Part shown: positions 19,119 to 56,708 of the stretch, piece by piece
Numbering within the stretch: position 1 is the first letter of the stretch
How the letters are laid out: every line of letters starts with the position of its first letter
Source of the DNA: Mytilus californianus
Taxonomy: Eukaryota
Direction of reading: 5' to 3'
Length of the DNA stretch: 64,000 nt
Assembly: GCF_021869535.1 (NCBI RefSeq)
Contig: NW_026262604.1
Location: 34,782,001 to 34,846,000, forward strand
Notes under the pieces: model-generated
Seen by the model: the letters and a program-made list of their open reading frames with translations, nothing else
Databases searched by the model: none
What the model was told of the DNA's origin: nothing
Position numbers and translations under genes: made by a program

Positions 19119-19119
19119 T

Positions 19120-20568
19120 AAAACCTAAACATTCCCCTGAATGCCTCTGCCCTATCTCCCAACTCTCCCATTATGGCTGCCTGGACCCTCCAGTCAATGA
19201 GGGCTCAAGGAGAGTTAACCGGCGCTGTCGAAAAGTATGGGGGAACTGGTCGTCCCCCTTCCAGGCATACTTCTTCCATCTGGCCCTGGACTGCCTGCCC
19301 AATGATGTGGGGTCGGGTTATTGCCAGCCTATTAATGTGGGTAACCAAATCCTCTAGGTCCCCATCCACTAGCATCCAGGCTTGTGCTTGTAGCGCTGCT
19401 ACCCTGATTGGTGCGAGGGAAGCCCTTGATGGATCGGATGATTCTCCGAATACTTCAGCCACATGTTCCAGCATCACATGTGGCTGAATATCCAATGCCC
19501 TTATGGGGCAACCCTGGATTGGGCACTGCTGTAGGGTGGGGAGGTTGCTCTCCCTTGGCGGTGTAGGTCCTTGGGGTGTCCTCTGGCCTGACACCCCAGT
19601 CTCCCTCAGCTGGTAGTCTGGTTGGGGTGTCCTTTGACTTGACACTCCAGTCTCCCTGGCTTGGTGGTTTCCTTGGGGTGTCCTCGGGCCTGACACCCCA
19701 GTCTCCCTCCGCTGGTAGTCTGATTGGGGTGTCCTTTGACTTGACACCCCAGTCTCCCGTGCTTGATGTTTTTCTTGAGGTGTCTCATAGCCTGACACCC
19801 CAGTCTTTCTCCCTGTGTAGTAGTTCAGGGGTGTCCTCTGTCCTGACACCCCTGTCACCTTGGACGTATAGCCACGTTGGGGTGTCCCTTGCCACGACAC
19901 CCCTGTCCCCCTCCTTCCTCCTCCCCGGAATGAGCTCTGTGCGGACACCCCTGCTCCATCCCTTGCTCCGGACTGGGGTGCCCGCCTCTCTTGGGTCTCT
20001 CTGAGGGCCCTCTGCAGTCTGGCCATTTCTCCTGCCTGGCGTTCTTTCTGCCTATTCCTCCTCCTCTTCCTCTCCTGTGTAGTTTCCTTACTACCCTGAA
20101 AACCCCTACCCAGTGGAGGCGCGCTGTGAGCATCCCGGTCGGCTGGAATGCCCACAGGGGTGTCCCTAGCCATCGGGACAGCGGCCCCTGGAGTGCTCCT
20201 GGAAACGGAACAGCGGCTCCTTCCTCCACTGGGGTCCCTAACTGTACCCTCCCTACTGCCTGACCGAGCCCTTCCCCGGGAACTGCGGCTCCCATCCCTG
20301 GTGTTCCTGACTGCCCCAGAACCCCACTCTAGACTTGTGTCTCCAGCCTTTGGGGAGGAGTCCCTGTGGTCCCCATAGATGGCTTTTCCTGGAACCTCAG
20401 CTTCCCCCCTTGGGCCTTGGGCTCTCCCTGGTTTGGGATACCCCTTTCAACTGAGGGGACCCTATTTTGGTGTCGTCCCCTGGGGCTTACCTCTCTCTCT
20501 TCTTTCTTTTCCTCGGCAGCCCAACTCCTCTTCGGGCTGCCCCCAGTGCTATCATCATCACTGGACAT
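19120..20568 (-). pseudogene. Gypsy ORF3 (env position): basic low-complexity N-terminus, tandem repeats, CP..GC..H motif; truncated
   Basis: ORF pieces 20329-20637 and 19205-20173; in-frame stop at 19205 followed by ALIDWRVQAAIM. No signal peptide or TM segment seen. Confidence 0.7.
19570..19900 (-). repeat. About 54-57-bp coding tandem repeat (TGVSGQRTPQ...RE), 5-6 units
   Basis: GGGGTGTCC...TGACACCCC recurs regularly. Confidence 0.85.
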
Positions 20569-20762
20569 CTGTCTTCTCTGCAAATACAAAAAATACAACA
20601 TTGTGAGGCCCAACTTACTTACATCTGGCCTCTTCATTCAATATAGCAGCTATTTAACTAGGTACTCAGGTGTGTAAATAGTTGCCTTCATATGTACAAT
20701 CTCTTAAAACTATTTACAATGACTAAAAAACTTCTTATGTACAACAGCATTATTACAGCAAT

Positions 20763-23607: not shown

Positions 23608-23816
23608 CCCAGAACCCAATCTAATTAAAATTAAATCTCCGCACTTGCTCCTCGTTGTTTATATGTCGCGCGTGGGAGATCTAACAACAGCCGCTTGAGG
23701 GTCATGTCTAGGGTCAAATTTGGTGAACTTTGACCGACCAATCAGCGTGCAGAAAATCAATTTCGATTAACCAATCAGCGACGGGCTTGTATACCATTAT
23801 CGGATCGTTAAAAAAC

Positions 23817-26800
23817 ATGGATGCGCCCAGTTTGGACAACGTTTTGACAAAAGTTTTGCCAAAATTTGGTATAAATGATATAAAGAAGTAGCAAAAGGAA
23901 ATTTTAGAGTGTTTAGTTAACAAGAAGAAGTGCGTGGCTGTACTCCCGACTGGTTTTGGCAAGTCACTGTCGTTTCAACTGTACCTTCCAGTTGTCCGGG
24001 AGGTTATTGAAAACAGTTCTGACTGAAAAGTTTTAGTCTGTTGTCCCTTAGTAGCTCTGATGCAGGACCAGGTGGAAAAACTCGCGCACATTGGAAATAT
24101 TACTGCTGCATACAAAGGTTAGTGTAACTTTAAGCATGCAGTGGTAGTAAGGCTTCAATAAATGGAATAGTCTATACTATAGTATTTAATGCCATTAAAC
24201 ACCTAATTTATATTATAATTATTATGTTGGCAGTGTTGTATATTAAAGATGTTTATACCACATGAGAAATCAGTTAGGGAGTGACATGTTATCCCCCTGT
24301 ACAGTGGCGGATCTAGAACTTTTTGTAAGGGGGGCCCACTGACTGACCTAAGAGGGGGCCCCGCTCCAGTCATGCTTCAGTGATTCCCTATATAATCAAC
24401 TATTTTTCCCACAAAAGTGGGGCCCAGGCCCCCCTGGATCCGCATATGCTGTTGGAGCTTCTTATTTAATTAATGCAATGCCTCTATCTTACAAAAATGT
24501 CTTAAGATGTTATTCCCACACCTTATGGTGTCTAGATGCAGGGCCCCCTTTTCCATAGTCCTGGATCCGCATCTGACCAGGCAAAGATGTACATGTATGC
24601 CTTATTAAATAAAATAAAATTTATTTGCAGGAACATACATTTTAACTTCAGTATATCAACACATACACATGACTAACAGTAACAAAGCAGTAATATGAAA
24701 CTTAGATATACATGAGCAAAGTTAAAAAAAAACTGCAGAAGCAGTTGATCATAGCCACGGTAGCACATAAATTTGTCTCATTTCACTGAGAACAGATTGT
24801 ATCGGTCATATTGCCAGTATTTTACAGTCGTTTTGGCCATAATGCTAGTTCTTCATACTTTGTATAAAGATACATGTATATACTACATGTTGTATTAATG
24901 AAGCACCAGAGTCCAAGGGAAATGTTGTTAATTACATGTACTAATAATCTATCTCAAAACAAATATACATGCATATAAGAATAAGAAGATGTCGTACATG
25001 TACAAGACTTGAAGTAAAATTGCCAACTCAACTCTCCACCAGACAACAAATGACAAAGTTTACAACTATAGGTCACCATCTGACCTTCAACAATGAGCAA
25101 AATGATACAGCATAATTAACTACATGGCTCAGAAACGTGCGGGAAACTTAATTTTTAAATTAGATTGTTATTTGTCATGTTTGTGTTCAGGTGTTAAACA
25201 ATGAAAAAATAAAAAAAAAAATATGAAAAAGTGCAGTCTAAAAGACCTTGTTGGATGGCCAAACAGATACATTGGCAGAAACATCTCAAAATTGAGAAAA
25301 TATGCCATGCATTTATTGAAATCTCAGCTATATTCATTTCTGTATTGGACTTTACAACAATAAGAATTATTTCATTGGATTTCAATCTTTAATCAAACGC
25401 AGTGAAATGGAGAAAGGGTATTTGTACAGTGTACATTTAAATTATAGAAGTTATCATAGAAATATGTCTTTTTGGAGACTGCCCACCTACATTTTTTTTT
25501 GCATTTTAGGGTCATCTTCACCAGAGTGAACGGCCTAATTTATGCATAAAAAATGAACGAAAAACAAATACAAATGTATGTAACACATAAACAAATGACA
25601 ACTACTGAATTACAGGCTCCTGACTTGGGACAGGCACTATACAGAATGTGGCAGGGTTAAACATGTAAGCGGGATCCCAACCCTCCCCTAACCTGTGACT
25701 GTCTGTCAATCGTCCACCTGTCAGACAGTAACTCAAAAACTATTCAACTAATTAGCATGAAACTTTGATGAATTGTTTCTATATATTGATGTGTACTCCC
25801 TTCCCATTTTTATGAATTTAGATTTTCAAAAATATAGAAGTAAAAAATTAAGACCACTGGTACAGAACTGTACAGCTTTCAAGAACGAGATAACCTAATA
25901 CTAAAAAGTAAGCTCTTTTAAGACCACTACTTGCAAAATGATGAACCATTACAATGTAATTATAAGAATGTATGAAAAATAAAACCCTAAACAAATGTGA
26001 TAGACAGCAACCAACAACAACCACTGAATGATAGGCTGTTACATAACAATATGGACAAGCACATACATGTATTTAATTTTGTTTTGCCAAAAGAATTAAC
26101 AATCTAGGCAAGAGGTGCTGATATTTACCATTTATAAAAGTTTTTATAGAAGTAATTATTTCTATTTTTCTTTCAGGGGCCAAGATGAAGGAGACAGAAA
26201 AAAAGGCTTTTCGAAAATGGTTTTCTCTTTTCCGATGCTACAGTATTGGCTTTAAGTGCAACTTGCACTGTAAGCTTTAGGAAAAAAGTCATGAAAATAT
26301 TGCAGCTAGTGGAGGACACAACAGAAATTAATTTATCACCAAACAAGTCTAATATTAAACTAGTATCTTCCAAAATTAAAAATTAAATTGAAATTGGAAT
26401 GACATGGTTAGTAGATGCATTAGATGAAAAAAGTCAGGACTTCCCACGTACACTTTTGTATTGTTCATCGATAAATGACACTTCCAAACTTTATAAATAC
26501 ATTGTAACAGAATTGCCACATTGTGCCAAGTATATTGAGATGTTCCATTCTGAAACTCCAGATGTTAACAAAAACATCATAATTAATGCATTGAAGGAGG
26601 AAAGTAGTGATTTGAGACTTATTTTGTCAACCAGTGCCCTGGGAATGGGTTTAGATGTAAAAAAGTGTAGTGGAGTGGTATTATTTGGACCTCCAAATAA
26701 TCTGGTAGATTTGCTGCAAGAAATAGGGCGAGTGGGGAGGGATGGAAATCCATCAGTTGCCATTATCCTATACAATGGATACCACTTGCAGAAGTTGAAA

Positions 26801-27127
26801 CCGGAAGTTAAGGCAATTCTTAAAGCTAAAGATTGTAGGAGAAAGGATCTGATGTGTAATTTCCTCAGAAATTCAGACTTGGATGATTTGATGAAGAAAG
26901 AAAGCAGGAAACATTCATACCGTGACTTGTGTACTAAGTCTTGTAATTGTGAATCCTGTGATATGTTACCTCTTGAGAAGTTATTTCTGTCAGAACAAGT
27001 TGTTGAGGAGCTCGAGGAGCAAGAAGATTCTGCTGTTTCAGATAGCGATACTGAAGACTACAATTTGTCGGCCTATGAATACTTCGAAGATCTTGATATG
27101 GCTTTATTAGAAATACAAGATGATTAA
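23817..27127 (+). pseudogene. RecQ-like SF2 helicase of AcademH; exons about 23817-24117 and 26177-27127
   Basis: LPTGFGKS (Walker A), PLVALMQDQV, LALSATCT, STSALGMGLDV, QEIGRVGRDG, CRR. Stops at 23889, about 24025 and about 26385; the DExH exon was not found. Confidence 0.85.
24302..24448. mobile_element. MITE with CAGTGGCGGATC..GATCCGC termini (hAT-like)
   Basis: Short imperfect terminal inverted repeats. Confidence 0.6.
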
Positions 27128-27709
27128 AACAGTTGATATTTATTTATTTAATTTTTCAGTATCTGGTTTCTGTTACTTATTCAACTTTAGACTCTTCAAA
27201 TTTTTTTGACTTTGAACCCCCTTACAATTGCTGTATTGCCACTCTAGATCTGGGTTCATGTCATGCCTGCAGCTGTCAATGGGACTAAAAAGAGATGTAG
27301 CGTATAAAAACAAATGAGACAGTAACTGATTGACACACATCATAAGATATTTACTTTTTTTCATCTTAAAAATAAAGAGATGCGGTATGATTGCCAATCA
27401 GACAACTAGTACCCTCCAGACTTTTCAATAACTTGATATAAGCAATTGTAGAACAACGAGAAAAACCCATGCCTTTAGTCGGCTACAAAAGGCCCCGACC
27501 AGAAAAATATGAAAAAATTCAAAAGAGAAAACCATGTCTGTCATGTCCGTCAGATATGGTTGCAGATTCGCCTAATCTTGACCTCATTTCATGAAACAAG
27601 CATATAATAATATTAGGGGTCAAGTCTGCATCTCGATTACTATAAACATGATAAACAAACAGAAAAATATATTTGGTGTGGAATTATTGTAAGATGTACA
27701 TGTTATATA

Positions 27710-28095
27710 AAAAGAAGATGTGGAATGATAGCCAATGAGCATGATTAGACAACTCTCCACAAGAGACCAAATGACACAGAAAGTAACAACTATAGGTCAC
27801 TGTACGGCCTTCAACAATGAGCAAAGCCGATACCGCATAGTCAGCTATAAAAGGCCCTGAAATGACAAATGTAAAACAATTGAAACAAGAAAACTAACGG
27901 CCTAATTTATGTACAAAAAATGAACGAAAAACAAATATGTAACACATAAACAAACGACAACCACTGAATTACCTTAAGGCTCCTGATTTAGGACAGGCAC
28001 ATACATACATAATGTGGCGGGGTTAAACATGTTAGCAGGATCCTAACCTGGGACAGTGGTGTAACAGTACAACACAGGAACGAACTATAAAAATC
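27710..28095 (+). repeat. Abundant interspersed repeat (AAGATGTGGTATGATTGCCAATG family)
   Basis: Related pieces at about 25030, 25520-25720, 27380-27530, 38185-38480 (minus) and 42575-42960. Confidence 0.75.
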
Positions 28096-28526
28096 ACTCT
28101 GGTTGGTTTTTGACCTTGACTTTTCATGGTTTATTGATCAACAAGTCAACTATCTTTGGTGTATAGAATTATTGCTATTGATGTATGTCCTTTTGTGCTA
28201 AGTTTTGGCATGGTTCATATGACATGTATGACTTTGACCTTTTTGTTCATTGTTCTTGATGATGTTATATTTGTTCTATATAGCAAACTCATTGTATTTA
28301 ACTTGGTGTAGCCAACAGTATACATAGAGGATGATTATTTTTGCTCAAAATAAACATTGACAGGTTGATTGATTATTGATTTCTTCACTTGGGTTTCAGT
28401 GGCAAATATTTCATGCATATTCAAGACAATAACATGAAGTGGGACTATATCTTACTTACAACTTTGTTCAAGACCAATGTGTTCATCAAGAAAACAGTCA
28501 AATATAGACTTAATACCACATCTTCT

Positions 28527-29288
28527 TTTTTATACGACCACAAAATAATTTTGCGCAGCGGTCGTATATTGGTATGACGTTGGCGTCGTCGTCCGAAGAC
28601 ACATTGGTTTTCGCACTCTTACTTTAGTTTAAGTAAATGGATCTCCATGAAATTTTACCATAAGGTTCAATACCACAAAAGTAAGGTGGGGATTGATTTT
28701 GGGGGTTATGGTACCAACAGTTCAGGAATTAGGGGCCAGCAATAAGCATTTTTGTAACTTCCAGACATTACTTGTGTGTTAGTGTATGGATCTCTCTGAC
28801 ATTGTACCACAAGGTTCCATATCACAAAGGGAAGGCTGGGATTGATTATGGGGGTAATTGCCTCAAAATTTTAGTAATTAAGGGGCAAAAAACAAGTATT
28901 TTTCTAGTTTCATGACAATAACTTGTGTGTAAGTGTATGGATCTTTCTGAAATTGTACTACAAGGTTCCATATCACAAAGGGAAAGCTAGGTTTGAGTTT
29001 GGGGATAATTTCCCTAAATGTTTAGGAATTTTGAACCAAAAAGGGGCCAAAAAACAAGCATTTTTCTAGTTTCCAGTCAATAACTTGTGTTTGAATAGGT
29101 AAATTAAAAATTTATAAGTTCTTAGACCACATTTATTCTGTGTCAGAAACCTATGCTGTGTCAAATATTTAATCACAATCCAAATTCAGTGCTGTATCAA
29201 GCTTGACTGTTGTGTCCATACTTGCCCCAACTGTTCAGGGTTCGACCTCTGCAGTCGTATCAAGCTGGGCCCAGCAGAGCATTTTATT
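28527..29288 (+). mobile_element. Helentron-associated non-autonomous element (HINE-like) with about 150-bp internal repeats
   Basis: TTTTATACGACC...GGTCGTATA terminal hairpin, GTCGTC motif, AAGGTTC.ATA.CACAAA recurring three times. Confidence 0.65.
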
Positions 29289-29929
29289 ATATTAAGTTAC
29301 TCTTGTTTAATTTGACTAAGATAGAAATTGAACCAAATAATGTGCACTTATAACTTCATCACTCAGGAAAGCACATTTAACCAACACCACCTTGTATAAG
29401 TTTTATCAACAGCTCTTTACCAGTACATATAGGGTATATATCTGCATGCTGGTCGCCTTGTGAACAAATCTGTAAAAGTTTGGTTTTTATCTCATTTTTA
29501 AATATTTTTTTTTGTACAAACGTGCTTGATGTTTTCATAAAGTCATTTCGGGTCTTTGTACAGCTTGCTATAGGTTTTACTCAAAGTCAGAGGTGGAACT
29601 GTGAACTTTAATACAGAAAAATAAGTTGGTCCCTTTTGAATAGTTGTCTCATTAGAAATCAGGCCACATTTTTATAAACATGTTTTTGTAGGTAGTTATG
29701 CTGCCTAATCAAAATGACCATGATATTCTGCAACTAAACTGAAAGTATTTCATTACTTTGTTTGTTGGGTTGATGTCTCATTGACTTATGACACTTTAAT
29801 ATCAGCAACAAACTACTAAAAAAGTACCAGCTAATTAAGGTTATGACTTAAGAGAAAATCAAACCTGCACACTTTATTCACAATAATTTAATTCCAAGCA
29901 ATATTTTTCAAATATGTGGATTTGAAGGC

Positions 29930-30690
29930 GATGGAAGGGGACTGTTGGTTGATGTCACGGCGATGAATCAATGTACGAAGTCCTATAAATGCACTGTCAA
30001 ATGGGTTTTTGTCTTTTTTTAGCTCCTTGCACTTAATTGTTATTATTCTTGAAGTTTTATATGTTACATGTAGTACATTTTCTTGTAGTAGGTCTTTTGC
30101 AATTTTCTGAACATCAGCTTGGTATGACCGTATATGGTGGAACCCCTTCTTTCCTGTTAAATTGGTAATTTTATCAAAATGGCTTGCAAAATTAACTAGG
30201 TGAGGGTTGAAGGATACTTTCCTTTGTCTGATGTCCTGAACATGTTACTTTTGTATCCTTGTTCAACATCTCTCAAGTGTTCATCTAAGCTTATTTTATT
30301 GTTTGTTCCTCCTTGCAGATTAACAAATCTATTAGCAATTAATCTTTCTGATTGGTCAGGTGATAAGACACCCGAAGTTAGTCACTTAGTTCTTCTTGAA
30401 TTTTTAATGCATCTTTCTTTAATTTGATTGACTGTTGGACTTTTCTCAAACATTTAATACAGAAGCCATTGTCATTGTCTACTTCGGCGTTTACTTCAAA
30501 ACCAGTAACAACACTAGAAATTATTGCGATTCTCTCTGAGTTCTGCTGAAGTTTCAGTTTGAACAGTTTTTTTTCAACACGTTCTCCCGTTGAGGAGATT
30601 TCTATCTGGATGAAAGAAAAACCGCATAAAACACAAATGTTTGTTCATACTGATATTTTCCTTGGAGTGCATACTTCACTTGATGCCATT
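29930..30690 (-). pseudogene. Academ transposase relic, N-terminus joined to C-terminus by a deletion
   Basis: MASSEVCTPRK..NICVLCGFSF followed directly by NRFVNLQGGTNNKISLDEHL and HIRSYQADVQKIAKDL. Confidence 0.7.
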
Positions 30691-32680
30691 TTAACCTCGG
30701 AAGGCAATAATACAAACTATTATTACAGTTGTATGTTACGAAACGTTTTTCGCATGGGGGCTGCCATTTTTGTTTATATACATTCGGAAGACCTCTAGAC
30801 GCTACTAAGACTCCTATGCCAGTCCAATACCCTAACACTTTGTAGCACCTTCGCTGATTGGCTACAGCAAATTTGACCCTAGACATGACCCTCAACCGGC
30901 TGTTGTTAGATCTCCCACGCGCGACATATAAACAACGAGGAGCAAGTGCGGAGATTTAATTTTAATTAGATTGCCCAGAACCAAAATGTCATCCAGAAAG
31001 GCCAACACTATATCCCAGGTTAACCCCCTTAGAACCAAGCTTATGACCCTGGCATAAGTAGCTGGGGCATTACAGAGCCCAAATGCCATCCTGGCAAACT
31101 CAAAAAGGCCGTATTTTGAAATAAATGCGGTTTTAGACCTATCCTCCTTCTTGATTTTCACTTGCCAATACGCTGAGTTAGCGTCCAGCTTAGAGTACCA
31201 TCGATTCCCTGCAAGGGTATCCAGGCACTCTTCTACTAACGCTAAAGGAAATACGTCCTTTACACAGGTAGCATTCAAAGCCCTATAGTCAATGCACCAC
31301 CTGACCCCCCGTCCCTTTTTCTTACCAGTACTGGGGCAGAGCACCATTCAGAAACTGAAGGCTGAATGACCCCCTGCCTCCAACATTTTCTTTAAGTGGG
31401 TCTCCTCCTCTTGAGCAAACCCAATAGGGGTTCTTCTCATTCGTTGCTTTATTGGGGGGTGTCCCGCAGTGTCAATTTGGTGCTCAATGGTCGAAAAGTT
31501 CCCCAAATCAAACTCACTTGCTGCAAAGACATCCCCGTACTACCTTAACAGAGATGCCAAGGCTTCTTGCTCTTGGCTTCCCGGTAGTGCCTTGGAGCGA
31601 TCAAGGAGGTCCCTGAGATGCTCTGTGACTCCCTGGTCCGACTCTGTTGAGCCAGTACCCACCCCTGTACCTACTACTCGTACCTTTGCGGGGACCTCTA
31701 TGGGCTCCACCTCTACTGCCTGGGCAATTAATTTCCCCTGATGCACATGTACATGCTTATCTGAAGTATTTATCAGACACACTACTGGTTGGCTCCCCCC
31801 TGCATGTAAAGTGCGGGGAACCAAAAGACCAGAGTGACTGCCTGCCTCGACAATGTAACTTGGCATTTCGCAGTTGACCTGACAGCTGAGCTTCATCACT
31901 GAATTGGGCGGCACCGTAATTTTATTACGTATTGTCACATTAGCTACCCTGGGTGCCTGCCCGACCTTACCCATAGTCATGGGTATGACCTCGTCCCCTA
32001 CCCGCAGCTGTCCATCGGACATTTGTAAGTCGATACAATGTACCCTTAATAAGTCAAAACCCAACAGCATGTCGTCCTCTATATGGGCCACGTACAGATT
32101 TGTCTGTATAAGATTGGAACCCAGTTCCAAATTCACGGGCCCGACAACATACCCGTTCATTTGCATCCCCTTTCCTGCTGTATTCATGATGACTTCCCTG
32201 AGGATGGGTGGGACAGATTTTAGGGACCTGTATACCTCTTCTGATATAAGGGTCACTTCTGCCGCAGTGTCCACTACGGCAAACAAACTCTGCCCCTGAA
32301 CTTTAATGGGTACCCTAAATACCGTTCCGGAACGGAGCTGACAGACAGTGACTATCTCACAATCGTTCTCCTCATCCACTAATGTGGTGTCTGCTTCCCC
32401 CTCTGAAGAGGAGGCCCCACTGTTATGGGCTTCCTCATTATTTTCTAGGTCATTATCAATGGTTCTTACCGCCCTGAGAGGGCTATGGCCTTCAGTGGAG
32501 TCCCAGTTACCCTGGGGTTCTCCATAACTGGCCATAGTTACTGCTGCCGGGCTTGTATCTTCGCGTTCAAACCATAAGCTCCCTGATATTTCTCCCCTCT
32601 CCTCACCCCCAGGGTCCCCCTGATCTTTGGTAAGCACTGACTGAACAATAGGGCGTCCAAATTTGATTTGTTCTCCAGGG

Positions 32681-33241
32681 TCTAGATGAACAACCCCCAT
32701 AAAGAACTTGACGGGCAGGACTCCTGCCTGGTTACCTGGGCATAATATAGCCCTACTGGGTGCCCAAAAGAACTCGTAACCCTCGGCCTGAGCCCTTGGT
32801 ACATCTTTCATTATCTGTACTTCCCAATGAGGCTTGAAGGTAGGGGGTACCTCACTCAATAGATGAATGTGCTGTCTATTCATCCGTCTCAATCCTTCCT
32901 CTTCTATATCCCCCCCAGGCAAGCATGGTTGTGTAGTGGTAGGCATGGGCAACAGTGTTTTCCTCTACTGAGGGCATACCAAAAGATCCCACTTCAATGG
33001 AATGCCCCTGGTTTGCCTTTATTTTCCACCAACCATGATCTTGGTCCCTCTCTAAAGTGAAACGTTTGTCCACGTCTACCCCAACCAAACGGGTGAGCTC
33101 CTTAAGGGTGTACCCCGACAACCCTGGGTGCCTAGACAGGAGCTCATCAACATACACAAATCCCCCAGGGAGAACCTTGAGTCCCCATTTACTGGCACCA
33201 TGCCGCAACACATATATCAGTGTTTTTGACAAGTGACGGTC
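32681..33241 (-). pseudogene. TRPT1: Tpt1/KptA (TRPT1-like) NAD-dependent RNA 2'-phosphotransferase domain within Pol
   Basis: LSKTLIYVLRHGASKWGL..GFV, DKRF, IKANQGHS, HYT...W.DI..EGL..MNRQHIHL, D..RAQAEGYEFF, ILCPGNQAGVLPVKFF. One extra G in a G7 run at 32910-32916. Confidence 0.92.
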
Positions 33242-33540
33242 AACTCCATGGTCTTGAATGACTTCCTCCTCTGAATCGGAGGAAGCATTCTCCTTATCCT
33301 CTAATGGGCACTCAGGCGCTAGTTTAATTACAGACTCTGTGTCCTGGGTGCCCTCCCCTTCAGACTCTGTGTCCAGGGTGCCCTCCCCTTCAGACTCTAA
33401 TGATAACACTCCCTCTGCCTCTTGTATTTTTATGGGCATTACCTCTTTCCCCTGACAAACTGATTCTAGACCATGATATCCCAAGGTCACTTCCCCCACA
33501 TTTTGATCCCTAAACTGCACATCTGTTGACAGGCCAGACT

Positions 33541-35677
33541 CTATTTTTGGGGGCTTGCTCTGACCTGTGGAGCTGCCCCGTTGGAGTTTAACGAATTTGG
33601 TGTTGTACGAGTTTGGTCAGCAAAAGTGACAGTTCTCTCTTTAGACCGCAGATCTGGGCACTCAATTCGAATATGCCCAGGCTTATAGCAGTGATAACAT
33701 ACACTTTCACGCACAGACCCTCGATATGGGGATGGGCTTCTTGATTGTGACCTTCCCCTAAATTTTGGGCAGTCCCGTTTGAAATGTCCTCTCTCCCCAC
33801 AGTGGAAACATTCTCCTGTAGCTGGCCGTCCGCCCGGTGAGGGGCTTCTTGCCAGAGGGCGAGTGAGGAGTTTCCTAAATTGGTCCATCATGTCATCCAA
33901 TTTCTCATGCACTTGACCCAACTTATTTTCAAATTTTTTATTGGCTATTCCAATTCACTTTTCCAAGTACTCGCTGGGGCCCTCTCAGGGGCCATAGTAG
34001 CCCTTACCTGCGGTACCTGGTACTCATGGAACACCTCTGGGTGGTCGTCATACCGGCCACCCATTACCTGCCTAACCTCACGCCTAGTTGGCTTCCCATA
34101 TATTGCCTGGGTATTGTGCTGGAATAGCCGTATTTTATCTACGGCCTCCTCTATGCTTTGGGGCTGGAGATTTGAGACTTGCACCCCCAACTCTTTGTTT
34201 TCAATACCCTGGCACAGCCGCATTACGGCCTGCTCATACATATAGTCATCAGGGAGGTTTCTAAAGGCCCTGGTGGCCAAGGACAACACCCGATCAGCCC
34301 AGTCCTCGAGAGACTCCTCAGGGGCTTGCCGGGCATTGTTGAACTGGACCCGGGCGGTCTCAGGGAGTGCCTTGAAACCAAAGCGCTTGTGGAGCTTCTC
34401 CACAAGCTCCTTATAACTCACCTCCCTGTCTCTTTCCGTTATGAGGGCATAATACTCGCTGGCCTTCCCCTCAAGGCACCAGCAAAGTTGGTCTTTACAT
34501 TCCTGCGGACCCCATTCACAAACCTCTGCGTACCTTGCAAATTTTGTGAAAAAGGCCTGCCAGTTGCCCTACCCGTCATACTTAATATTTTTTGGGGCAT
34601 TGCTAACTTTAGAGACTGCACCTAAAGTTGCTCGTGCCCCACCTCTGCTGTCAGGTCCCCTTATGATTTCCCTGGGCCTATCCTCATTGTGTGGCATTGG
34701 GTAAGCATGTTGCCCGTAGCTTCCCCCGGTGTAGACCCCTTGTGGGGGCACCGGTGTAGACCCCTTGTGGGGGCACCGGTGTATACCCTTGGTTGTACGG
34801 ATTATGGGATTGCCTATCCCCATAGGCACAGGCAGGGGTCCGCCTTTGGTCCTCACCCCTGTTGTTTGGTCTTTCTTCATACATTGGGGCTGGAGCTTTT
34901 CTGGAGTCCTCGCCCCTATTGTCTTGCCACTTGCCATACCCGGGGTGTTTCATACTGTCTCCCACCAGTGTGAGCTGGTTGGGTACAGGGTGCTGACCCC
35001 TGACCTGCATAGTTAATTGTGTGACCCATGGGGTATGAAGGTGCGCCCCTTTTGGTTGGGACGGTTTTGTCCCATGCACTGGCTTTCCCTGGCCAGTGCT
35101 GTTTGGTCTTAATACTACTCCCTTGATGTTGGGGATTACCTTGGTTTGGGTCACCCATAATAGGTTGACTCCACTCATTTTTTGTAATTTGTTCCCTGAA
35201 TCCCCCATCCCAATTTTCGGGGGTCTTAGGTCTAGCTCCAGCATCCCCGGGATATGGGCTACACTCAAGAAAGGCAGAGTCCATCTGACTGGGCCCGGGA
35301 CTTTGCCCCTGATGCCATGCCTCTTGCTTAAATGCTGATTGGACATGTACCCGTGAGGGGGTGCTTTGTGAGGCAACGTGTCCCCCATCTATTAGTGTGT
35401 TAACCCTGCTCAACATTTCATTATGCCTGCCTTGGGCCTTAGGTGGTGGCCCACTATTTTGGCCACCCCCATTTTGATTGAAGTCAAGTCTGGACAAGAG
35501 GGCCATTGTCACTCGTAGATGGGAAATTGTGGCTAGGTCTGACTCAGTCACAAAGCCCTTGCCCTCCCTTATGTCCATAATTTGCTCCCCAGTTTTAATT
35601 CCTATACCTGGGAGCTGAAGTAACTCTTGAAAGCTACAAGTGTTTATGTTTATAATGGACATTGTAACTGTAAACAA
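33541..35677 (-). pseudogene. gag: Gypsy gag with N-terminal helix-hairpin-helix and two CCHC knuckles; frameshifted
   Basis: ININTCSFQELLQLPGIG (HhH), PKNIKYDG, RQAPEESLEDWADRV, CFHCGERGHFKRDC, CYHCYKPGHIRIEC. Confidence 0.9.
33547..33592 (-). promoter_or_regulatory. Putative -1 programmed ribosomal frameshift signal (gag/pol)
   Basis: G TTA AAC (33592-33586), 6-nt spacer, then hairpin GGGGC-A-GCTC-loop-GAGC-AA-GCCCC; pol is in the -1 frame and open from this point. Confidence 0.7.
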
Positions 35678-36187: not shown

Positions 36188-36201
36188 TGCTCGCAGCGCC
36201 A
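36188..36201 (-). promoter_or_regulatory. Primer-binding site, probably tRNA-Ser
   Basis: TGGCGCTGCGAGCA 1 nt after the LTR end; complementary to ...TGCTCGCAGCG-CCA, similar to the animal tRNA-Ser(CGA) 3' end as I recall it. Confidence 0.75.
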
Positions 36202-36202
36202 A

Positions 36203-36620
36203 TGTTGTGATCCCGAGTAAATATATGAACTTACCCAAGACGCTTCTTGGCGTTGATCGCTTAGATGGCTTTCTGGTATAATTTGGTGACTGTTGTCTTG
36301 ATTTTGGTTTACCGGAAAAAGAGAGAAGGCATCATGGGATCGGGCAACTTCCGGCAGGGTCTGGCTTAGTACCAACGAATACCACAACAACATACCAATA
36401 GAATAGTTCAGATTCAAAGTCAAACCAAGTTATTAATCTACGAAAGATACCAAGACCACATAACAACAACTACTTCCGGGTTCTAGGACCCGAGTCTCTT
36501 GTTTCTTAATTCAGTGAGGCGATAAAGTGTTCATATCTTAATTCGCATTAAAACATATATTTATGCAATTATATTTATGCAAGACAACATACAATATTCA
36601 CATTTAATCATTTCCTTACA
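36203..36620 (-). repeat. 5' LTR (about 418 bp, TGTAAGG...CACAACA)
   Basis: TG...CA ends, adjacent PBS. The outer end is inferred because no second LTR is available for comparison. Confidence 0.7.
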
Positions 36621-37050
36621 TAAATTCTCCCAAGTTATATTTTGCAAAATCCTATACTTGACCGTTATTTAATCGTAAAGCTTAATTCTATTTCTATCTT
36701 AATAATATATCCTACATGTCAAAGGAACAAGTATTTATTTCGAGGTGTGGCTATGCCAAAAAGGTAAAAATTAGGTAAAATTATCTCCCTTGCATCAAGA
36801 GAGGTAGACTGTTTATAACAAACCGTTTGTATATATATAGTGCCAGAGCACCTAAACTTAGTTGCATAATAGTATCCAATAGGATTCAAGTTTAGAAATC
36901 AAAACCAATTAAATTTACATTTACTTAATTTGTTATTCAAAAGTAAAATGGCGTACTCCCAAAAGTCGAAACAAGCAAAGCCTATGTTACATTCCGAGGA
37001 ACTACATTCGGAACCTCTCTAAATAGCAGCCATTTACACACGAGAAGACT

Positions 37051-46519: not shown

Positions 46520-46558
46520 CATAACACTTTTATTAAATAATCTAACTTTTTCAATACA

Positions 46559-47058
46559 GACTTGTTCTGAATGCTGTATTACATACATCAAATGTGAATA
46601 TAGGACCAATATTTCCAATACGGACTGGCAATGATGTGAATATAGGGCCAATGTTTCCAATACGGACTGGCAATGAATCCTGAATTACATGCACAATATA
46701 TGTTTACATGTAATTCAGGATTCATTGCCAGTCCGTATTGGAAATATTGGACCGGGCCGAAAAGCAATATAGATCACGTGATTCATATGACCAGGACGAC
46801 GTCACCAGAGACTTGTTCTGAATGCTGTATTACATACATCAAATGTGAACATAGGGCCAATATTTCCAATACGGACTGGCAATGATGTGAATATAGGGCC
46901 AATATTTCCAATACGGACTGGCAATGAATCCTGAATTACATGCACAATATATGTTTACATGTAATTCAGGATTCATTGCCAGTCCTTATTGGAAATATTG
47001 GAATTGGCCGAAAAGCAATATAGATCACGTGATTTATATGACCAGGACGACGTCACCA
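46559..47058. repeat. Tandem dimer of a 251-bp unit, each containing a long hairpin
   Basis: Unit starts at 46559 and 46810; each has about 44-bp inverted arms around CACAATATATGTTTA. Confidence 0.9.
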
Positions 47059-47964
47059 GTATGACACATGCCGTTTTGGTAGTATTAGGGCTATTTTAAT
47101 CTTATTATTTAACAATTTCAGATTAAGTATACCTGACATCATAATGTTTAAGTACAAGTATCTTACAGTAGGATACTTTGCTATCAAAATCCACATCAAC
47201 TGCACAAACAACTTATTATTTTCTAGAGTATCAAACTTGATCAATTTTAAGCCAAATTTATTGCGGACTACCAATATTTTTGTGCATGTACTTAATTTTG
47301 TGCACTTCCTGTTATTTAGTTATGTCACGCTATTCTAATATTCTCTAATATTGTGATAGACAGATTTTCTTTTTTTGAGAATGCGTAGGAAGAATTTGAC
47401 TCATCATACAAATGCTTCCAATAGGTAAATACTTTAAATAAATTACCAATCTTACATCAACCTACCAGTGCAATCAATATAATTTGATGATATCTGGGAG
47501 GGGGCAATTTTCCCCCTTAATCAATCTCTCCATTGTCTAATTAAATCTTGTATTTCTTGTCGCATAATTTTGGATGATCTTGTTGATGTTTTTGGAAAAA
47601 CGCGTTTTGGCCCTCCTTACTCTTTGTATGTATTCTCTGTTACTTAGCTTCATATTTATATAAAATTTGTGTGTATGATTGTATTGGGCAAAGATCATCA
47701 CTATGTGGCCTGTATTGGCTGGTCTACCCCTTTTCTGTTGGTTACATTTAATTTTTCACCTTCATTTTTTCTTCAGCTTTGTAACAACACATTGACATTC
47801 TGTCATTGTCGTGTTTTTTGAATGATTTTCAAGAAGCCAAACAATGGCGCACATCCTGTTCATTGGAGGACAATTTATTTTTAATTTTGATGTCTCTTTT
47901 CAGGATTTTTTTAGCTGTTTTCGTCTTTTGTGATTTACTTTTTGTTGGGTGTTAGTTTCACCAC

Positions 47965-48672
47965 GCCCATTCCAAAGCCATTAAATAAGCGTTGCAGAAC
48001 GAGCGCTACCACTCCCTCACCTGGTTTGTCCCCCTCCCCCCCTTTTGGAAGCAATGCAAGTTGCTCAATTGCACCGGATTGATTGCCATGCTCGTCATAA
48101 CTCCCAAAACCTCTCGATGAGGCCTGGCATGAACCTTGTCCAGTCTGTCGTCACGTACGTGTAGGTCCACATGCTGGTCGAAACGACACGACTGGAGGGC
48201 CCACCGTAATGTAGAGATCTGGAGGCCATGTAATCTCTCCTCAGCTGTGAAATCAGAACAGATACACCTGGGTGAGACACCCGCTGATTGAACCTGTGCT
48301 AAACGGCATCCTAAAACTGCCCCGCACTCTTGGGGTGGATCCCCACTGCCCCGACCCATCCCGGTTCAAGCCTAAGCGGCACACGGGGCCAAGTCTTGGG
48401 ATCGCAGAAGACTGCCACGCCTCCAGCCAGCTTGGCTAGATCCACAGGAGCGGGGGTCAACCGCATCCGTAGGAAATCCCCCAAGGATGTCTCAAGAGGC
48501 ATTCCCATCTTGCTTAGGGATCTATCAAGATCGAGTGGCTGTCAAAAGCATCAGGCAGATCCCTGCACAATCGGGACTCCACTTCCCTACTCCCTTGCGA
48601 ATCTGAGGCGATCCCCGAGCTCCCAGGGACAGAGGTGAGCTCTGAGACCCTAGACCTATGTAGGACTTGGAC
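47965..48672 (-). pseudogene. tatD: TatD-like nuclease fragment, Gypsy ORF3 type
   Basis: AFDSH(x)LDR (frameshifted), GGVAVFCDP, AVGIHPK, LHVRD, LHCF, VREW; GC-rich like the Gypsy element. Confidence 0.75.
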
Positions 48673-51600
48673 ACACTTATATATTATTTCATCATACTTT
48701 TGAAAATTGTGTAAAGAACATAACCTTAAATTTCACTTTTTTTCTTTATTGATAATTTTATTACATTTTTCAAGATTCAACCACTTTTTATAGATAATGT
48801 ATTAGAGGTAATCTAAAATCGACCAATTATTATAGATGATTGTATTAGATGTAATTTCAATCGGGTACTGTCTTTATTTATAATTTAATTTATTTTACAA
48901 TGAATTCGATCACTTTTTATAAATAGTTGACTAGATGTAACCTTAAATCTAATACATTATAACATAATTGTATAAGTTTAACCTTAAAACTGCAACTGTT
49001 ATGTTTATTATTTTAACATATTTACATTAAATATGACCACTTTTTATATATTTGTATTAAATGTAATCTTAAATCAGTCATTTTTTTTAAATTAGTGTAT
49101 TAGACGTATCCTTTAATCGAACACTTTTTATAAATAATTGTAGAAGATATAGCCTTAAATCTGCAAATTTCTTGATTTATACTTCCTTTACATTTTACAA
49201 GATTGGGCAACTTTTTATAAATATCTGTAATAGATGTAACATAAAATCTGCCATATTTTCAAGATAATTGTAGTAGATATAACCTTAAACCGGCCACTGC
49301 TTAATTGATAATTTACTACATTTTACAGTTAATTTGACCACTTTTTAGGATATTTGTATACGATGTTACATCAAATCAACAATTTTTCTAGAAAATTGTA
49401 TTAGATATAACCTTAAATCTGCCACTTTCTTTAGAGGTAATTTTATTTTTTTTATAGATAATGTATTAGATGCAACCTTTAATCGACATATTTTTATAGA
49501 TAATTGTATCAGATGAAATTTTCAATCGGCCACTTTCTTTATTGATAATTATATCAAATTTTACAAGACTCAAAACACTTTTTACAGGTAATTGAGATGT
49601 AACCTTTAATCGGTCATTTTTTTTAAATAATTGTATTAGACTTTACCTTAAGTCGAACACTTTTTACAATATTTGACCACTTTTTATAGATTATTAAATT
49701 AGATGTAACCTAAAATCAAACCCTTTCTTTGTTTTATTATATTTTACAAAAGATTTGGCCACTTTTTATAGATATTTTGTAACTGAAATTGACCATATTT
49801 TATAGATTTTGTATTAGATGCTACTTTTAATTGACCACTTTCTCTATTGATGATTATGTTAAATTTCACAAGATTTGACTACTATTTATAGATAATTGTA
49901 CTAGATATAACCTTAAATCGGTCACTTATATTTTTGATTATTCGGTTACTTTTTATAGATTATTGTTTTAGATGTAACCCTAAATCAAACACTTTTTGTA
50001 AATAATTGTAAGAAATAAAACCTACAATCGGCCACCTTATTTATTAATCATTCTATTAAATGTTACATTTGACCACTTTTTATCGATAATTGTATTAGAT
50101 GTAACCTTTAATCGACTACTTTTTATAAATAATTGTATTATATATATAACCCTAAATTGAACGCTTTTTATCAATAATTTTACTAGGTGTAACTTAAAAT
50201 CATCCACTTTCTTTATTGATTATTTTCCTACATTTTACAATCAACACTACCACTTTTTATAGATATTTGTATTAGATGTAACATAAAATCGACAATTTTT
50301 ATAGACAATTGAATATTATGTAATCCTCAACTGGCCATTGCTTAATTGATAATTTTACTACATTAGACAATAAATTTGACCACTTTTTTATAATTGTATT
50401 AGATGTTACCTTAAATCTGTAATTTTTTCTATATAAATGTATTACATGTTAGTTTAATTCTGTCACTTTCTATATTGATAATTAATTACACAAGATTCAA
50501 CCACTGTTTATAGATAATGTATTAGATTTTACCTAAATCGACCATCTTTTATAGATAATTGTATTAGATGTAACTTTTAATTAGCCATCATTTGGTATCT
50601 TGTGGAGAATTGTCTCATTGGCAATCATACCACTTCTTTTTATATGTTCTTTATTGATAATTATATTACATTTTACAAGATTCGACCATTTTTAATAAAT
50701 AATTTTCTCAGATGTAACCATAAACCTACCACTGTTTTATTGATAATTTTACTATATTTTACAGTAAATATGACCTTTTTTATAATTGTATTAAATGTTA
50801 CTTTAAATCGGCCATTTTTTGATAGATAAATGTTATTAGATGCAATCTCAAACCGGCAACTTACTTTATTGATAACCTGTACATTTTACAAGATTCATCC
50901 ACTTTTTATCGATAATTTATTAGATGTAACGTAACCTTAAATCGACCATATTTCACAGATAATTGTTTTAGATATGACCTTAAACCAACGACAACTTTTT
51001 ATAGATGATCATATAAGATGTAACCTTAAATCGGTCATTTTTTTTAGTTCATTGTATTAGATGTTACCTTAAATCGATCACTTTTATTCAGATTATTAAA
51101 TTGGATGTAACTTTAAATCGGCCACTTTTTTTATTGATAATTCTATTACATTTACAAAAATCAACCCTTTTTTTATAGATAATGTATACGATAAAACCTT
51201 AAAACGATAGAAAATTGCATTAGGGGAAACTATATCGGCCACTTTTTTTATTGAAAATTATAATAGATTGTACAATGAAATCGACTACATTTTATAGATA
51301 ATTGTATTAGATTTAACCTAAAATCGAACACTTTTTTTATTAATTATTTTACTATAGTTTACCAAAAATTAGGCCATTTTTATTGACTTTTATATTAGAT
51401 GTAACCTTAAATCGGTAACTTTTTTTGAATAATTATAATAAACGTAACCTTAAATCGAACCCTTTACATGATTCGACCACTTTTTATTTGGAATTATATT
51501 AGATGTTACCTTAAATCGACCATTATTTATATATATTTGTATTAGATGTAATTTTCAGTCGGCAGCTTTCTGTATTGATAACCACTTTTTAAAGATAATT

Positions 51601-52759
51601 TATAAGATGTAACGTAACCTGAAATCGACCATATTTTATACATAATTGTTCCAGATAAAACCTTAAATGTACGACCACTTTTTATAGATAATTATATAAG
51701 ATGTAACTTTATATCAGTGATTTTTTGTAGATAATTGTATAACATGTAATCTTATATCGACCACTTTCTTTATTGATAAGTATACCACATTTTACAGTGA
51801 ATTTCGCCATTGTTTTGATAATTGTATTAAATGTTACCCTAAATCGACAACTTTCGTTTAGATAATTGTATTGGATGTAACCTAAAATCGGCTACTTTTT
51901 TTTTATTGATAATTCTATTACATTTACAAGATTTAACCACTTTTTATAGATAATGTATTAGATGAAACCTTAAATCGACCATTTTTCTTTGTAGATAATT
52001 GTATTAGGTGTGACCTTATACACTTCCTTTATTGATAATTATATTACACTTTACAATATTGGACCACTTTTTATAGGTATTTGTATTAAATTGAACCTTA
52101 AATCGATCACTTTCTTTATTGATTATTTTACTATATTTTACAATAAATTCGATTATTTTCTTGATTATTGTATAAAATGTAACCTTATTTCAGTCATTTT
52201 TTTTTTTAGATAATTATACCAGATAATTGTATTAGATTTAAGCTTGAATTGGTCACCTTCTTTATTGAATAATTTCCTATATTTTACAATAAAATTAGAT
52301 AACTTTTTATAGATAATGGTAATAGATGTAACATTAAACTGGCCACTGTTTGTTTAATGATTTAACTACATTTTAAAGTAAATTTTACCTTAAATTTGTA
52401 AAAAAAAATATCATTGTAATAAACGTTACCTTAAATTAAACACTTTTAATAGATAATTGTATTAGATATAGCCTTAAATCGGCCTCTTTTTTTAATGACA
52501 ACTCTTTTAATTTTTACTAGATTCGACTCCTTTTTATAGATCTAATATTAAAGCGGTAACTTTTTTTAAATAATTATATCAGACGTTACCTTAAATAAAT
52601 TCCCTTTTTATAGATAATTGTATTAGATGTAACCTTTAATCGGTCACTTTCTTTATTGATAATTCTTTTACATTTAACAAGATAAGACCACTTTTTATAG
52701 ATAATCGTATAAGTTTTAATCTTAAATCGGTCACTTTCATTATTGATCATTTTACTGTA

Positions 52760-53077
52760 TTTTTCGTCCCTGAGGGTATCACCAGCCCAGTCGTCAGCAC
52801 TTCGGTGTTGACATGAATATCAATTATATGATCATTTTTATAAATTTCCTGTTTACCAAACTTTGAATTTTTCGAAAAACTAAGGATTTTGTTATCCCAG
52901 GCATATATTATCTTAGTCGTATTTGGCACAACTTTATGGAATTTTGGGTCCTCAATGCTCTTCAACTTTGTACTTTTTTGGCTTTATAACTATTTTTATC
53001 TGAGCGTCACTGATGAGTCTTATGTAGACAAAACGCGCGTCTGGCGTATCAATTTATGATCCTGGTACCTTTGATAA
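52760..53077 (+). mobile_element. Non-LTR retrozyme-like monomer inserted in the satellite
   Basis: About 320-bp non-satellite insert containing a minimal hammerhead. Confidence 0.75.
53004..53047 (+). ncRNA. Minimal type I hammerhead ribozyme, core mutated (GAAA to AAAA)
   Basis: GCGTCA-CTGATGA-GTCT(TATGT)AGAC-[A]AAA-C(GCGC)G-TC-TGGCGT; cleavage site GTC after 53041. Confidence 0.85.
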
Positions 53078-56000
53078 ATAATTACAATAAATTTGACCAC
53101 TTTTCTTGAATATTGTATTAAATGTAACCTTAAATTGGTAAAATTTTTAGATAACTGTTTCAGACTTAACCTTAAATCGAACATATATAGATTTAGATTA
53201 TTGTTTCAAATGTGGCCATAAAACCGACACTTTCTTTATTGGTAATTGTTTTACATTTACAAGATTCGATCACGTTTTATAGATAATTGCATTACATGTA
53301 ACCTTAAATCGGCCACTTTCTTTATTGTTACTTCTTTAACATTTACAATATTCGACAACTTTTCAGATAATTGGATTAGAATTAACCTTAAATCGGTCAC
53401 TTTTTTTATTGATTATTTTACTATATTTTACAATCAATTCGACCATTTTTCTTGATTATTGTATGAGTTGTAACCTTAAATCCCTTTTTTTTAATAATTA
53501 TGTCAGACGTAACCTTAAATTGAACCCTTTTTCATAGATAATTGTATTAGATGTTAACTTAAATCTACCACATTTTATGTATGATTGTTTTAGATGTAAC
53601 CTCAAACCAGCCAATGCTCTATTGATACTTTTTCCACATCTTACAGTAAATTTTACAACTTTTTGGATAATTGTATTAGAAGCAACCTAAATTCGAACAC
53701 TTTTTTATAGGTAATTTTATTAGATGAAGCTTTAAATCGGCCACTTTCTCATTGATAATTCTATTACATTTAATAAGATTCGACCACTTTTTATATCTAA
53801 ATGTATTAGATGTAACCATGAATAGGTCACTTTCTTTATTGATAATTCTTTTATATTTTACAAGATTCGACCACTTTTTATAGATAAATGTTTTCGATGT
53901 AACCCTAAAGCAGTAACTTTTTTTTAAGATAATTCTATCAGACGTAACCTTCAATCGAACCCTTTTTTCTAAATAATTGTGTGAAATGTAGCCTTAAATC
54001 GGCCACTTTCCTTATTGGTAAATCTTTTACATTTTACAAGATTCGACCACTTTTTATAGATAGTTGTATTAGATTTAACCTTCAATTGGTCACTTCTTTT
54101 AATGGTAATTCTATTACATTTAAAAGGTTCAACCACTTTTTAAGATAATGTATTAGATGTTACCTTAAATCAGTCACTTTCTTTATTGATCATTTTACTA
54201 TGATTTACAATAAATTTGACAACATTTTATAGATATTTGTATTGGATGCAACATTAAATCGACCATATTTTATAAATAATCGTATTAGATATAACCTTAA
54301 ATCGGTCACTTTCTTTATTGACTATTTTACTATATTTTACAATGAATTCGACTACTTTTTAAAAATAGTTGTATTAGATGTTAATCTACCACATTTTATG
54401 TATGATTGTTTTAGATGTCCTCAAACCAGAGACTGCTCTATTTATACTTTTATCACAACTTACAGTAAATTTGACCATTTTTTGGATAATTGTATTAGAC
54501 GTAACCTTAAATCGAACACTTTTTGTGTAGGTAATTTTATCAAATTAAGCTTGAAATCGGCCTCTTTCTTTATTGATAATTCTATTACATTTAACAAGAT
54601 TCGACCACTCGATCGCAGAAGTCAAACAGAAAATAGTTAAAAGAGATTATCAGTCAGAAACGTCTGACTTACATGGCATCTCCACAGGTTCTTGCTCCAG
54701 AATTTTAAATATAATTGTATTAGATGTAACCTATATTCAGCCACTTTTCTAGATAATTGGTTTGATGTGACCTAAAATCTATCATTTTTCCAGATAATTG
54801 AATAAGACATGACCTTAAATGAGTCACTTTTTCTAGATAACTATATAAGTTGTAGCCTTAAATACGCCAATTTATGAGTGGATAATTTTGCATTAAGTTC
54901 GAACGTTTTTATCAAGATAATTGTGTTAGATGTGACCTTAAATCGCTTACGTTTTCAAGATGATTTCATTAGATGTAACCTTAAATCGGACACTTTCTGT
55001 ATTGTTATTTTATCACATCTCACAGGACATTCAAACATTTTCTATAGATACTTGTATTACATGTGACTTTAAATCAATCAATTCTTAATGCGTTATTTTA
55101 TTATATTTTACATTTTACTTCTAAAATATAATTGTATTAGATGTATCCTATAGTTGGCCACTTTTTCTAGATAATTGTATTTGATGTGACCTGGAACATA
55201 TCATTTTTTTTCTAGATAATGGTAATAGACATGACCTTAAATGAGTTACTTTTTCTAGCTAACTGTAAAAGATGCGACCTTCAGTCGGTCACCTTTTCTA
55301 GATTATTTTATTAGATATAGACTTCAATCAGCAACTCTCTGAACTGATAATTTTGCATTAAATTCAAGAGTTTTTTTTTTAGATAATTGTTTTGGTGTGA
55401 CCTTAAATCGCTCAATATTTCTATATAATTTTATTAGTTGTAGCCTCAACTTGGCCACTTTCTGTATCAAAAGTCTTGCATTAAATTCCTTTTTTTTTAT
55501 ATTTTTTTATTGATAGTTTTAGTTTTACTTTATTTTTAAACCATTTGACAACTTTTTATGGATAATTTTATTAGATGTAAGCTTTATTCCATCACTTTGT
55601 TTAGGTAATTATTCAACATGTAACCTGAAATCGACCACTTTCTTTACTAATAATTTTACTATAACTACAATAAATTTTGACTTTTTTTTAAAGATAATTG
55701 TATTGGATGTTAGCTATATTCAATTACTTTTTCTAGATATTTGTAATAGATGTGACCATAAATCGATCACTGTTTACCAGATAATTGTATCAGACATGAC
55801 CTGAAATCGGTCATTTTTTTAACAGATAATTGTAATAGATGTGACCTAATATCGGTCACTTTTTCTAGATAATTTTATAAGATGTAGCCTTAAATCGGCC
55901 ACTTTCTGTATTGATAATTTTGCATTAAATTCAAGCGTTTTTTTCAAGATAATTGTATCAGATGTGACCTTAAATCGGTCATCTTTTCAAGATAATAAAG

Positions 56001-56693
56001 GATATTACCTCACATCGGACACTTCTGTATTGTGATTTTTTTAACATCTTACAGTTCATTCAAATTTTTTTTTAAAGATTATTGTATTACATGTGACCTT
56101 ATACAATCAATTCTAAATGGTTAATTTTATTATATTTTACATTTTACTTTTAAAATATAATTGTATTAGATGTGACCTTTATTCAACCACTTTTTCTAGA
56201 TAATTGTTATAGACATGACCTTAAATGAGCTATTTTTTCTAGCTTACTGTAAAAGATGTAAGCTTCAATCGGTCACCTTTTCTAGATAATTTTATTAGAT
56301 ATAGACTTTAATCGGCAACTCTCTGAACTGATAATTTTGCATTAAATTTAAGCTGTTTTTTTTTATATAATTGTTATAGATGTGACCTTAAATCGGTCAT
56401 TCTTTCTAAATAATTTTATTAGTTGTAGCCTCAAATAGGCCACTTTCTGTATCAATAATCTTGCTTTGATTTCAAACAGTTTTTTTTTTAATCAGTCACT
56501 TTTTTTTTTGATAAATTAATTATATATAAGCTAATATCGGCAACATTCTTTATTCACAATTTTACTATATTTTAAATCATTTTACAACTTTTTATGGATA
56601 ATTTTATTAGATGTAAGCTTTTTTTTTATCACTTTTTGTAGGTAATTATTCAACATGTAACCTGAAATCGACCACTTTCTTTAATGATAATTA

Positions 56694-56708
56694 AGTCTCC
56701 CAAACGAA

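Follow-up and report, generated by a model that had tools for sequence, protein, structure and literature searches.

Enzymes carried in the position that env occupies in retroviruses are already known from bdelloid rotifers, where the LTR retrotransposons Juno and Vesta encode a DEDDy exonuclease or a GDSL esterase in a third open reading frame (ORF3), without a demonstration of enzyme activity for these products (PMC5408684). TatD nucleases are a second relevant group. Class II members use an HxH motif and two metals, and TATDN1 and TATDN3 are described as DNA exonucleases and AP endonucleases (PMC10085689). Human TATDN2 degrades the RNA of R-loops and hairpins and needs its disordered N-terminus for binding, according to PMC10711561, which also reports little DNA exonuclease activity, very weak AP activity and scarcely any cutting of plain RNA:DNA duplex. 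Mollusc Gypsy elements have been arranged in clades (MolGy1–16, CsRN1, Cigr-1) defined by reverse transcriptase (RT) and RNase H, in a paper whose main text contains none of the words 'TatD', 'ORF' or 'nuclease' (PMC6238403). 'TatD' is likewise absent from the main texts of PMC5408684 and PMC13524379, and in PMC6962438 the sole mention of TATDN2 is in the legend to a figure. Our searches turned up no publication that connects TatD with a retrotransposon; annotation of this kind may exist in Repbase, Dfam, supplements or subscription journals, which lay outside them.

Here we describe a TatD fragment in a 64-kb stretch of DNA from Mytilus californianus (hereafter the window), and compare it with the Gypsy element in the same window and with related elements elsewhere. 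We consider it very probable that the fragment derives from the 3' part of an ORF3, now a pseudogene, that belongs to an old Ty3/Gypsy clade of marine invertebrates.

The fragment occupies a GC-rich island on the minus strand (48672–47964), where GC content per 100 nt is 0.47–0.63 as against 0.20–0.38 on the flanks, and codes for a decayed TatD nuclease. When one 98-residue piece of its translation was searched against 1.84 billion proteins, five matches were returned at E 0.001 or better, the best of them P0004 (75% identity, E 2.8e-34), a protein of 257 residues from the same species annotated as 'putative deoxyribonuclease TATDN2'. P0004 in turn matches the Pfam TatD_DNase model (PF01026) at E 1.2e-33 and 117 bits, the curated cut-off being 27. 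Because one piece alone finds P0004 at this E value among so many proteins, the similarity to TatD is beyond chance. Pfam assigned no family to the window's three TatD pieces alone; the hmmscan proposed in the initial annotation is thus positive for P0004 and for five element ORF3s described below, and negative for the window copy itself.

The window copy is a pseudogene and is dead. Its motifs are spread over three frames (Table 1), and it carries at least six breaks (six in 585 nt). Four of the motifs named in the initial annotation, D-S-H, GIHP, H-x-R (as H-V-R) and HCF, are indeed present on the minus strand in GC-rich sequence, whereas the complete D-S-H-x-H is lost to a frameshift. The piece stops near residue 180 of P0004, so that some 75 C-terminal residues and the E-x-D motif are missing, and the metal-ligand residues are not intact, HxH and GExG being broken and the E-x-D region absent. 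The 3' cut is genomic, since contigs from two studies bridge this junction with no differing letters (X1 record 4 and X5 record 22), although X1 may be the sample from which the window itself comes; no contig among the matches listed spans the 5' junction. The multicopy repeat that begins where the TatD piece ends is common to other runs and has a few RNA reads, on the strand opposite TatD; it contains no long ORF and has no Rfam match, and Rfam found no family anywhere in 35500–49000.

A Gypsy element lies on the same strand at approximately 37006–19124, with the order gag then PR-RT-RH-INT that is typical of Ty3/Gypsy and is seen also in all five full relatives considered below. Its ORF3 (20568–19124) does run on the same strand as the TatD piece and is truncated before any TatD domain, as first noted; the cut, at about 19124, is made by AT-rich satellite. 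An acceptor-like site stands 9 nt before the ORF3 ATG. No second copy of the LTR was found within the 64-kb window, nor any after the TatD piece.

Table 1. Features of the Gypsy element, the TatD piece and their borders in the window.
Feature	Position	Strand	Basis or remark
AT-rich satellite array, ~43-nt unit, bordering TatD piece 5' end	48677..56700	+
Linker 5' of TatD domain, homologous to N-terminus of M. coruscus P0005	48544..48672	-	begins at satellite junction
Decayed TatD (class II, TATDN2-like), first ~70% of barrel	47964..48543	-	protein match and translation
D-S-H	48543-48535	-	translation
Frameshift inside HxH	near 48532	-	translation
FCDP		-	translation of TatD piece
GIHP	48343-48332	-	translation
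Stops	48313, 48301, 48008	-	translation
Short deletion removing G-E-x-G motif	near 48260	-	translation
H-V-R	from 48161	-	translation
HCF	48056-48048	-	translation
Further frame shift	near 47985	-	translation
Separate multicopy repeat where TatD piece ends	47416..47963
5' LTR (~37006-36203, ends set by eye) and primer-binding site	36188..37006	-
gag: N-terminal helix-hairpin-helix, capsid-like region, CCHC knuckles	33541..35660	-	Pfam
pol 5' part: Tpt1/KptA RNA 2'-phosphotransferase domain, protease, RT start	30973..33616	-	Pfam
7.3-kb insertion splitting RT, 109-nt terminal inverted repeats	23617..30973
pol 3' part: RT end, RNase H, integrase, PHD finger	20760..23624	-	Pfam
ORF3 5' part: SPKRSW start motif, long low-complexity region, CPxxGC..H..H and NSP..WR domain (19531-19139)	19124..20568	-
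Satellite of same kind, opposite orientation, bordering ORF3 cut end	18630..19120	-

Several other features of the window were recorded. The Tpt1/KptA domain in pol (33250–32720, minus strand; Pfam E 1.9e-21 and 2.4e-5 on two pieces) sits between the CCHC knuckles and the protease, its second piece in frame with the protease, and is absent from all 75 relative loci examined. The insertion that splits RT has inverted repeats 98% alike and encloses a helicase C-terminal fragment (26387–27127). At 17917–17840 (minus strand) another short CPxxGC..H stretch resembles the ORF3 domain (46% over 26 aa, E 0.03) and is possibly a scrap of another family member. The ~43-nt satellite is very high-copy and its two orientations bracket the whole Gypsy-plus-TatD segment; the blocks at 48677–56700 and 18630–19120 may be arms of a foldback-type element. 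Elsewhere on the plus strand, 8359–13374 holds an ORF1 and an ORF2 (957 aa) of non-LTR retrotransposon type, in which endonuclease and RT were recognized by eye, and then an RNase H-like frame; at 4769–7650 an F-box/LRR ORF is followed directly by a transposase-like ORF without a Pfam match. A SINE-like repeat of ~420 nt recurs with 94–97% similarity at 2865–3288, 37051–37473, 41070–41495, 43627–44058 and 59125–59548.

In relatives, ORF3 and TatD are linked. Over its last 142 codons the window ORF3 aligns to the domain lying just N-terminal of TatD in fused proteins: P0010 from M. edulis (40% over 136 aa, E 3e-30), P0009 (E 5e-11) and P0011 (E 1e-11), all three of which terminate in TatD. In the M. 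coruscus gene model P0028 the ORF3 domain is fused with Gypsy protease. A comparison of the ORF3 C-terminal region with proteins of 724–2065 aa scored none of 331 candidates, and one candidate, P0008, was rejected as a chance repeat match. When scanned with the ORF3 domain, 598 metagenome candidates yielded at least 27 loci and 29 GTDB candidates yielded 8. For the 36 loci among the matches listed, gag or pol lies upstream on the same strand in 16 and gag lies downstream, in circular order, in one; 15 span 3.4 kb or less, two are off-target (L027 was rejected on this ground), and two, L013 and L025, have 5.7 and 3.9 kb of upstream sequence without pol.

Five elements (L012, L026, L031, L032 and L033) have three long open frames, in which Pfam identified gag, then PR-RT-RH-INT-PHD, and then TatD as the sole family in ORF3 in every case (TatD_DNase 120–136 bits, cut-off 27); neither an env family nor a DEDDy exonuclease was found by Pfam in these five ORF3s. 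Their RTs are 64–73% identical to that of the window, and in all five a polypurine tract (PPT) and an LTR-like start follow ORF3. Across 16 loci, a G-rich tract of the family type and then TGT follow the TatD stop in ten, with a TGGCG primer site further 3' in seven; L032, L035 and L006 share the primer site of the window. Six relative contigs are circular, as collapsed LTRs would give, and no locus showed two separate LTRs with distinct flanks, the relatives being circular or wrapped with collapsed LTRs. We infer the 3' LTR of the relatives from the PPT, the primer site and these circular contigs. The SP(K/R)RxW start motif of the window ORF3 recurs in 4 of 15 TatD-ending ORF3s, and ORF3 length in the clade is ~690–1100 aa. 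Hence the suggestion that the fragment formed the C-terminal half of such an ORF3 is supported, at the level of the family, by fused proteins and intact elements alike: in full-length relatives ORF3 enters TatD and is followed by the PPT and an LTR-like segment, to which the circular assemblies add the primer site and gag. The full elements derive from invertebrate DNA in metagenomes and MAGs, with TatDs 31–45% identical to P0004; evidence from full elements therefore comes from loci outside Mytilus, and the link within Mytilus from the M. edulis protein P0010 and the M. coruscus gene model P0028.

A scan independent of author-set patterns used the Pfam TatD model over two GTDB Sedimenticola MAGs (G001 and G002). 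It gave 28 TatD matches, four of bacterial type and 24 on 23 other contigs, eight of which overlap the 36-locus set. Gag or pol lies upstream in 16 of the 23, and the remaining seven, only 2.4–3.7 kb long, have no room for them. Together these two MAGs (L029–L036 and L041–L075) hold 23 contigs with element-type TatD, many of them whole Gypsy elements; judged by this gene content, the element contigs come from the host and were placed in bacterial bins. The element clade also includes P0012, whose database entry gives it as a Thiodiazotropha TatD. L075 (G001:C1280) and L008 are internally deleted, retaining gag, protease and TatD and lacking RT, and L008 keeps an intact ORF3 of 755 aa; both are possible non-autonomous forms that retain the nuclease. 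Among viral contigs, one search found one bacterial-type TatD and another none in 18.

A narrower reading, compatible with the cargo identity, would derive the TatD piece from the element in the window, as its lost 3' half, which a satellite-bearing insertion in ORF3 detached and a later rearrangement moved upstream. One and the same satellite borders the two cut ends, inverted at one relative to the other, and the two fragments match successive, non-overlapping parts of P0010 (residues 32–167 for ORF3 and 213–401 for the TatD piece). Rejoined, they would leave a gap from WR to DxH of ~75 residues, compared by eye with ~66 in P0010 and ~100 or more in P0009, a weak fit given that the family ranges from 35 to 284 residues. 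However, a simple insertion would not give this order, the TatD piece lying 11 kb upstream of the 5' LTR and not downstream of ORF3. Breaks are also denser in the TatD piece (~10 per kb) than in pol (~1.3 per kb; 7 in ~5.5 kb), which points to an older copy, and the species has other copies 80–99% alike. We hold descent from this very element to be possible and lean somewhat towards another copy as the source.

In phylogenetic trees, for which P0004 stood in for the window piece and TATDN1 and TATDN3 were left out, the element TatDs form one group, with support of 95/94 (30 rows) or 81/77 (26 rows including the deepest). Its sister group is host TATDN2, sampled from snail, amphioxus and mammals, and five bacterial-type rows fall outside (100/99). 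P0004 sits inside the element clade (94/89), where it joins P0009 and P0010 at 96/97. From this position an animal TATDN2-like gene is the donor that we favour; in separate searches the bit score was 49 for YcfH and 84 for the snail TATDN2-like protein P0013. The sister position of host TATDN2, and the labels 'putative deoxyribonuclease TATDN2' and 'tatD' that the closest proteins carry in Mytilus annotations, might suggest a processed pseudogene or decayed paralogue of host TATDN2 without any tie to the Gypsy element. That origin is largely refuted and we consider it very improbable: P0004 nests in the element clade, away from the snail, amphioxus and mammal proteins; P0009 and P0010 bear the ORF3 domain; and the species has many divergent copies, one contig having a depth of 53 where same-locus contigs have 7–11. 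A host gene, or homologues without a Gypsy flank, would have told against the initial annotation; both were looked for and neither was seen.

The cargo is constrained across the clade. All eight His/Glu/Asp positions are kept in 28 of 30 element-type rows, the exceptions being P0004, which lacks its N-terminus, and P0023, with two substitutions. Among the 12 closest pairs from 25 TatD genes, eight were saturated at synonymous sites, and the four unsaturated pairs gave dN/dS values of 0.015/0.037, 0.075/0.255, 0.21/1.47 and 0.33/2.3; these substitution patterns show that TatD evolves under purifying selection. TatD identity across 15 elements (27–66%) tracks integrase identity (Mantel rho 0.70, n = 15, 0 of 5000 permutations), a correlation in which close pairs weigh heavily. 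The idea that TatD was gained recently and passively, or from a bacterium, and is useless to the element draws on copies deposited as bacterial proteins or located in bacterial MAGs, and is the least probable of all: its 'recent and passive' part is refuted by dN far below dS and by the parallel with integrase, the MAG contigs concerned bear Gypsy gag or pol and so are host DNA binned with the symbiont, and the MAGs' own TatDs cluster apart.

A structure model of the C-terminal half of the L008 ORF3, built from a 32-row alignment, reached a pLDDT of 93.7, and the top 16 matches listed by Foldseek were all TatD-type structures (E 1e-13 to 2e-10), which predicts a TIM-barrel amidohydrolase fold in this relative. 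A single-sequence model of P0010 (pLDDT 39) was too poor to use. For the C2H2-like and helical domain of ORF3 there was no Pfam family, and an Atlas search gave nothing at 0.9 or above; a BFVD search returned one giant-virus TIM-barrel match and noise. As regards expression, 10 of 19 ORF3s have an acceptor-like site no more than 15 nt from their first ATG, compared with 15 of 231 internal ATGs, under a pattern relaxed post hoc, and a stricter splice-acceptor filter retains 5 of 19 and misses the window site. In one RNA run, of which 6% was read, 18 reads fell on the stretch, none of them 95% alike or more; those over TatD are oriented as sense transcripts would be, a hint that transcription comes from other copies and not from the window copy.

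The layout of the clade is LTR – gag (HhH, CCHC) – pol (PR, RT, RH, INT, PHD) – ORF3 – PPT – LTR. At its N-terminus ORF3 is basic and disordered; a small domain, C2H2-like and helical, comes next, and the protein closes with a whole class II TatD barrel. TatD lies between integrase and the PPT, in the slot where retroviruses have env. The barrel would have been captured from the animal TATDN2-like gene and expressed, like env, from a spliced subgenomic RNA.

The description of the fragment in the initial annotation as a DNA exonuclease or AP endonuclease probably takes the wrong branch of TatD, the nearest characterised relative being TATDN2, reported as an RNA/R-loop nuclease (PMC10711561). 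Since TATDN2 is also the nearest host group sampled, DNase or AP activity seems less likely than was supposed. Our tentative first choice is a two-metal TATDN2-like nuclease that would cut the RNA strand of structured RNA or R-loops arising from the element transcript or from reverse-transcription intermediates, because TATDN2 acts on RNA and ORF3 shares its plan of low-complexity N-terminus and C-terminal barrel. A plain second RNase H is unlikely by the same analogy, as TATDN2 barely cuts simple RNA:DNA hybrids. We give less weight to each of two other roles: trimming of DNA ends or cDNA repair, and a counter-defence directed at small RNAs or at the sensing of nucleic acids. More speculative than the first choice is a fuller scenario, which we put forward as doubtful: a single ancient capture by a multi-phylum marine Gypsy clade would have made TatD part of a splice-expressed third gene, the active nuclease would remove R-loops or structured RNA against a host block of transcription or silencing, and the mussel subfamily would have added Tpt1 in pol to form an end-processing kit.

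With many divergent, intact families keeping TatD under purifying selection, the function becomes testable with natural proteins. The results also bear on annotation: retrotransposon genes account for many mollusc entries named 'tatD/TATDN2' and for some TatD entries of symbiont MAGs that pass as 'bacterial'. The TatD-bearing clade may itself be one of those already named MolGy1–16, CsRN1 or Cigr-1.

Compared with known enzymes, the element TatDs resemble YcfH, YjjV and TATDN3 in their HxH motif, further His/Glu/Asp ligands and TIM-barrel fold (PF01026; PMC10085689); those are more distant, act as separate proteins of the cell, and have activity as DNA exonucleases and AP endonucleases. Human TATDN2 is closer: it too has a C-terminal class II HxH TatD behind a long disordered N-terminus (PMC10711561) and shares with the element TatDs the C-D-P motif and an insertion after HxH. 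Unlike it, the cargo is element-encoded and multicopy, has the extra C2H2-like/helical domain, and is only ~30% identical. The closest parallel in organization remains that of Juno and Vesta, which are likewise Gypsy-type, with an enzyme in the env position, in one case a 3'-5' exonuclease, and with intact catalytic residues. In those elements the exonuclease has a DEDDy fold and the enzymes were gained family by family (PMC5408684), whereas here the fold is a TIM-barrel TatD and the cargo is clade-wide, co-diverging with integrase. Taken together, the rotifer and marine elements suggest repeated selection for 3' nucleases in the env slot.
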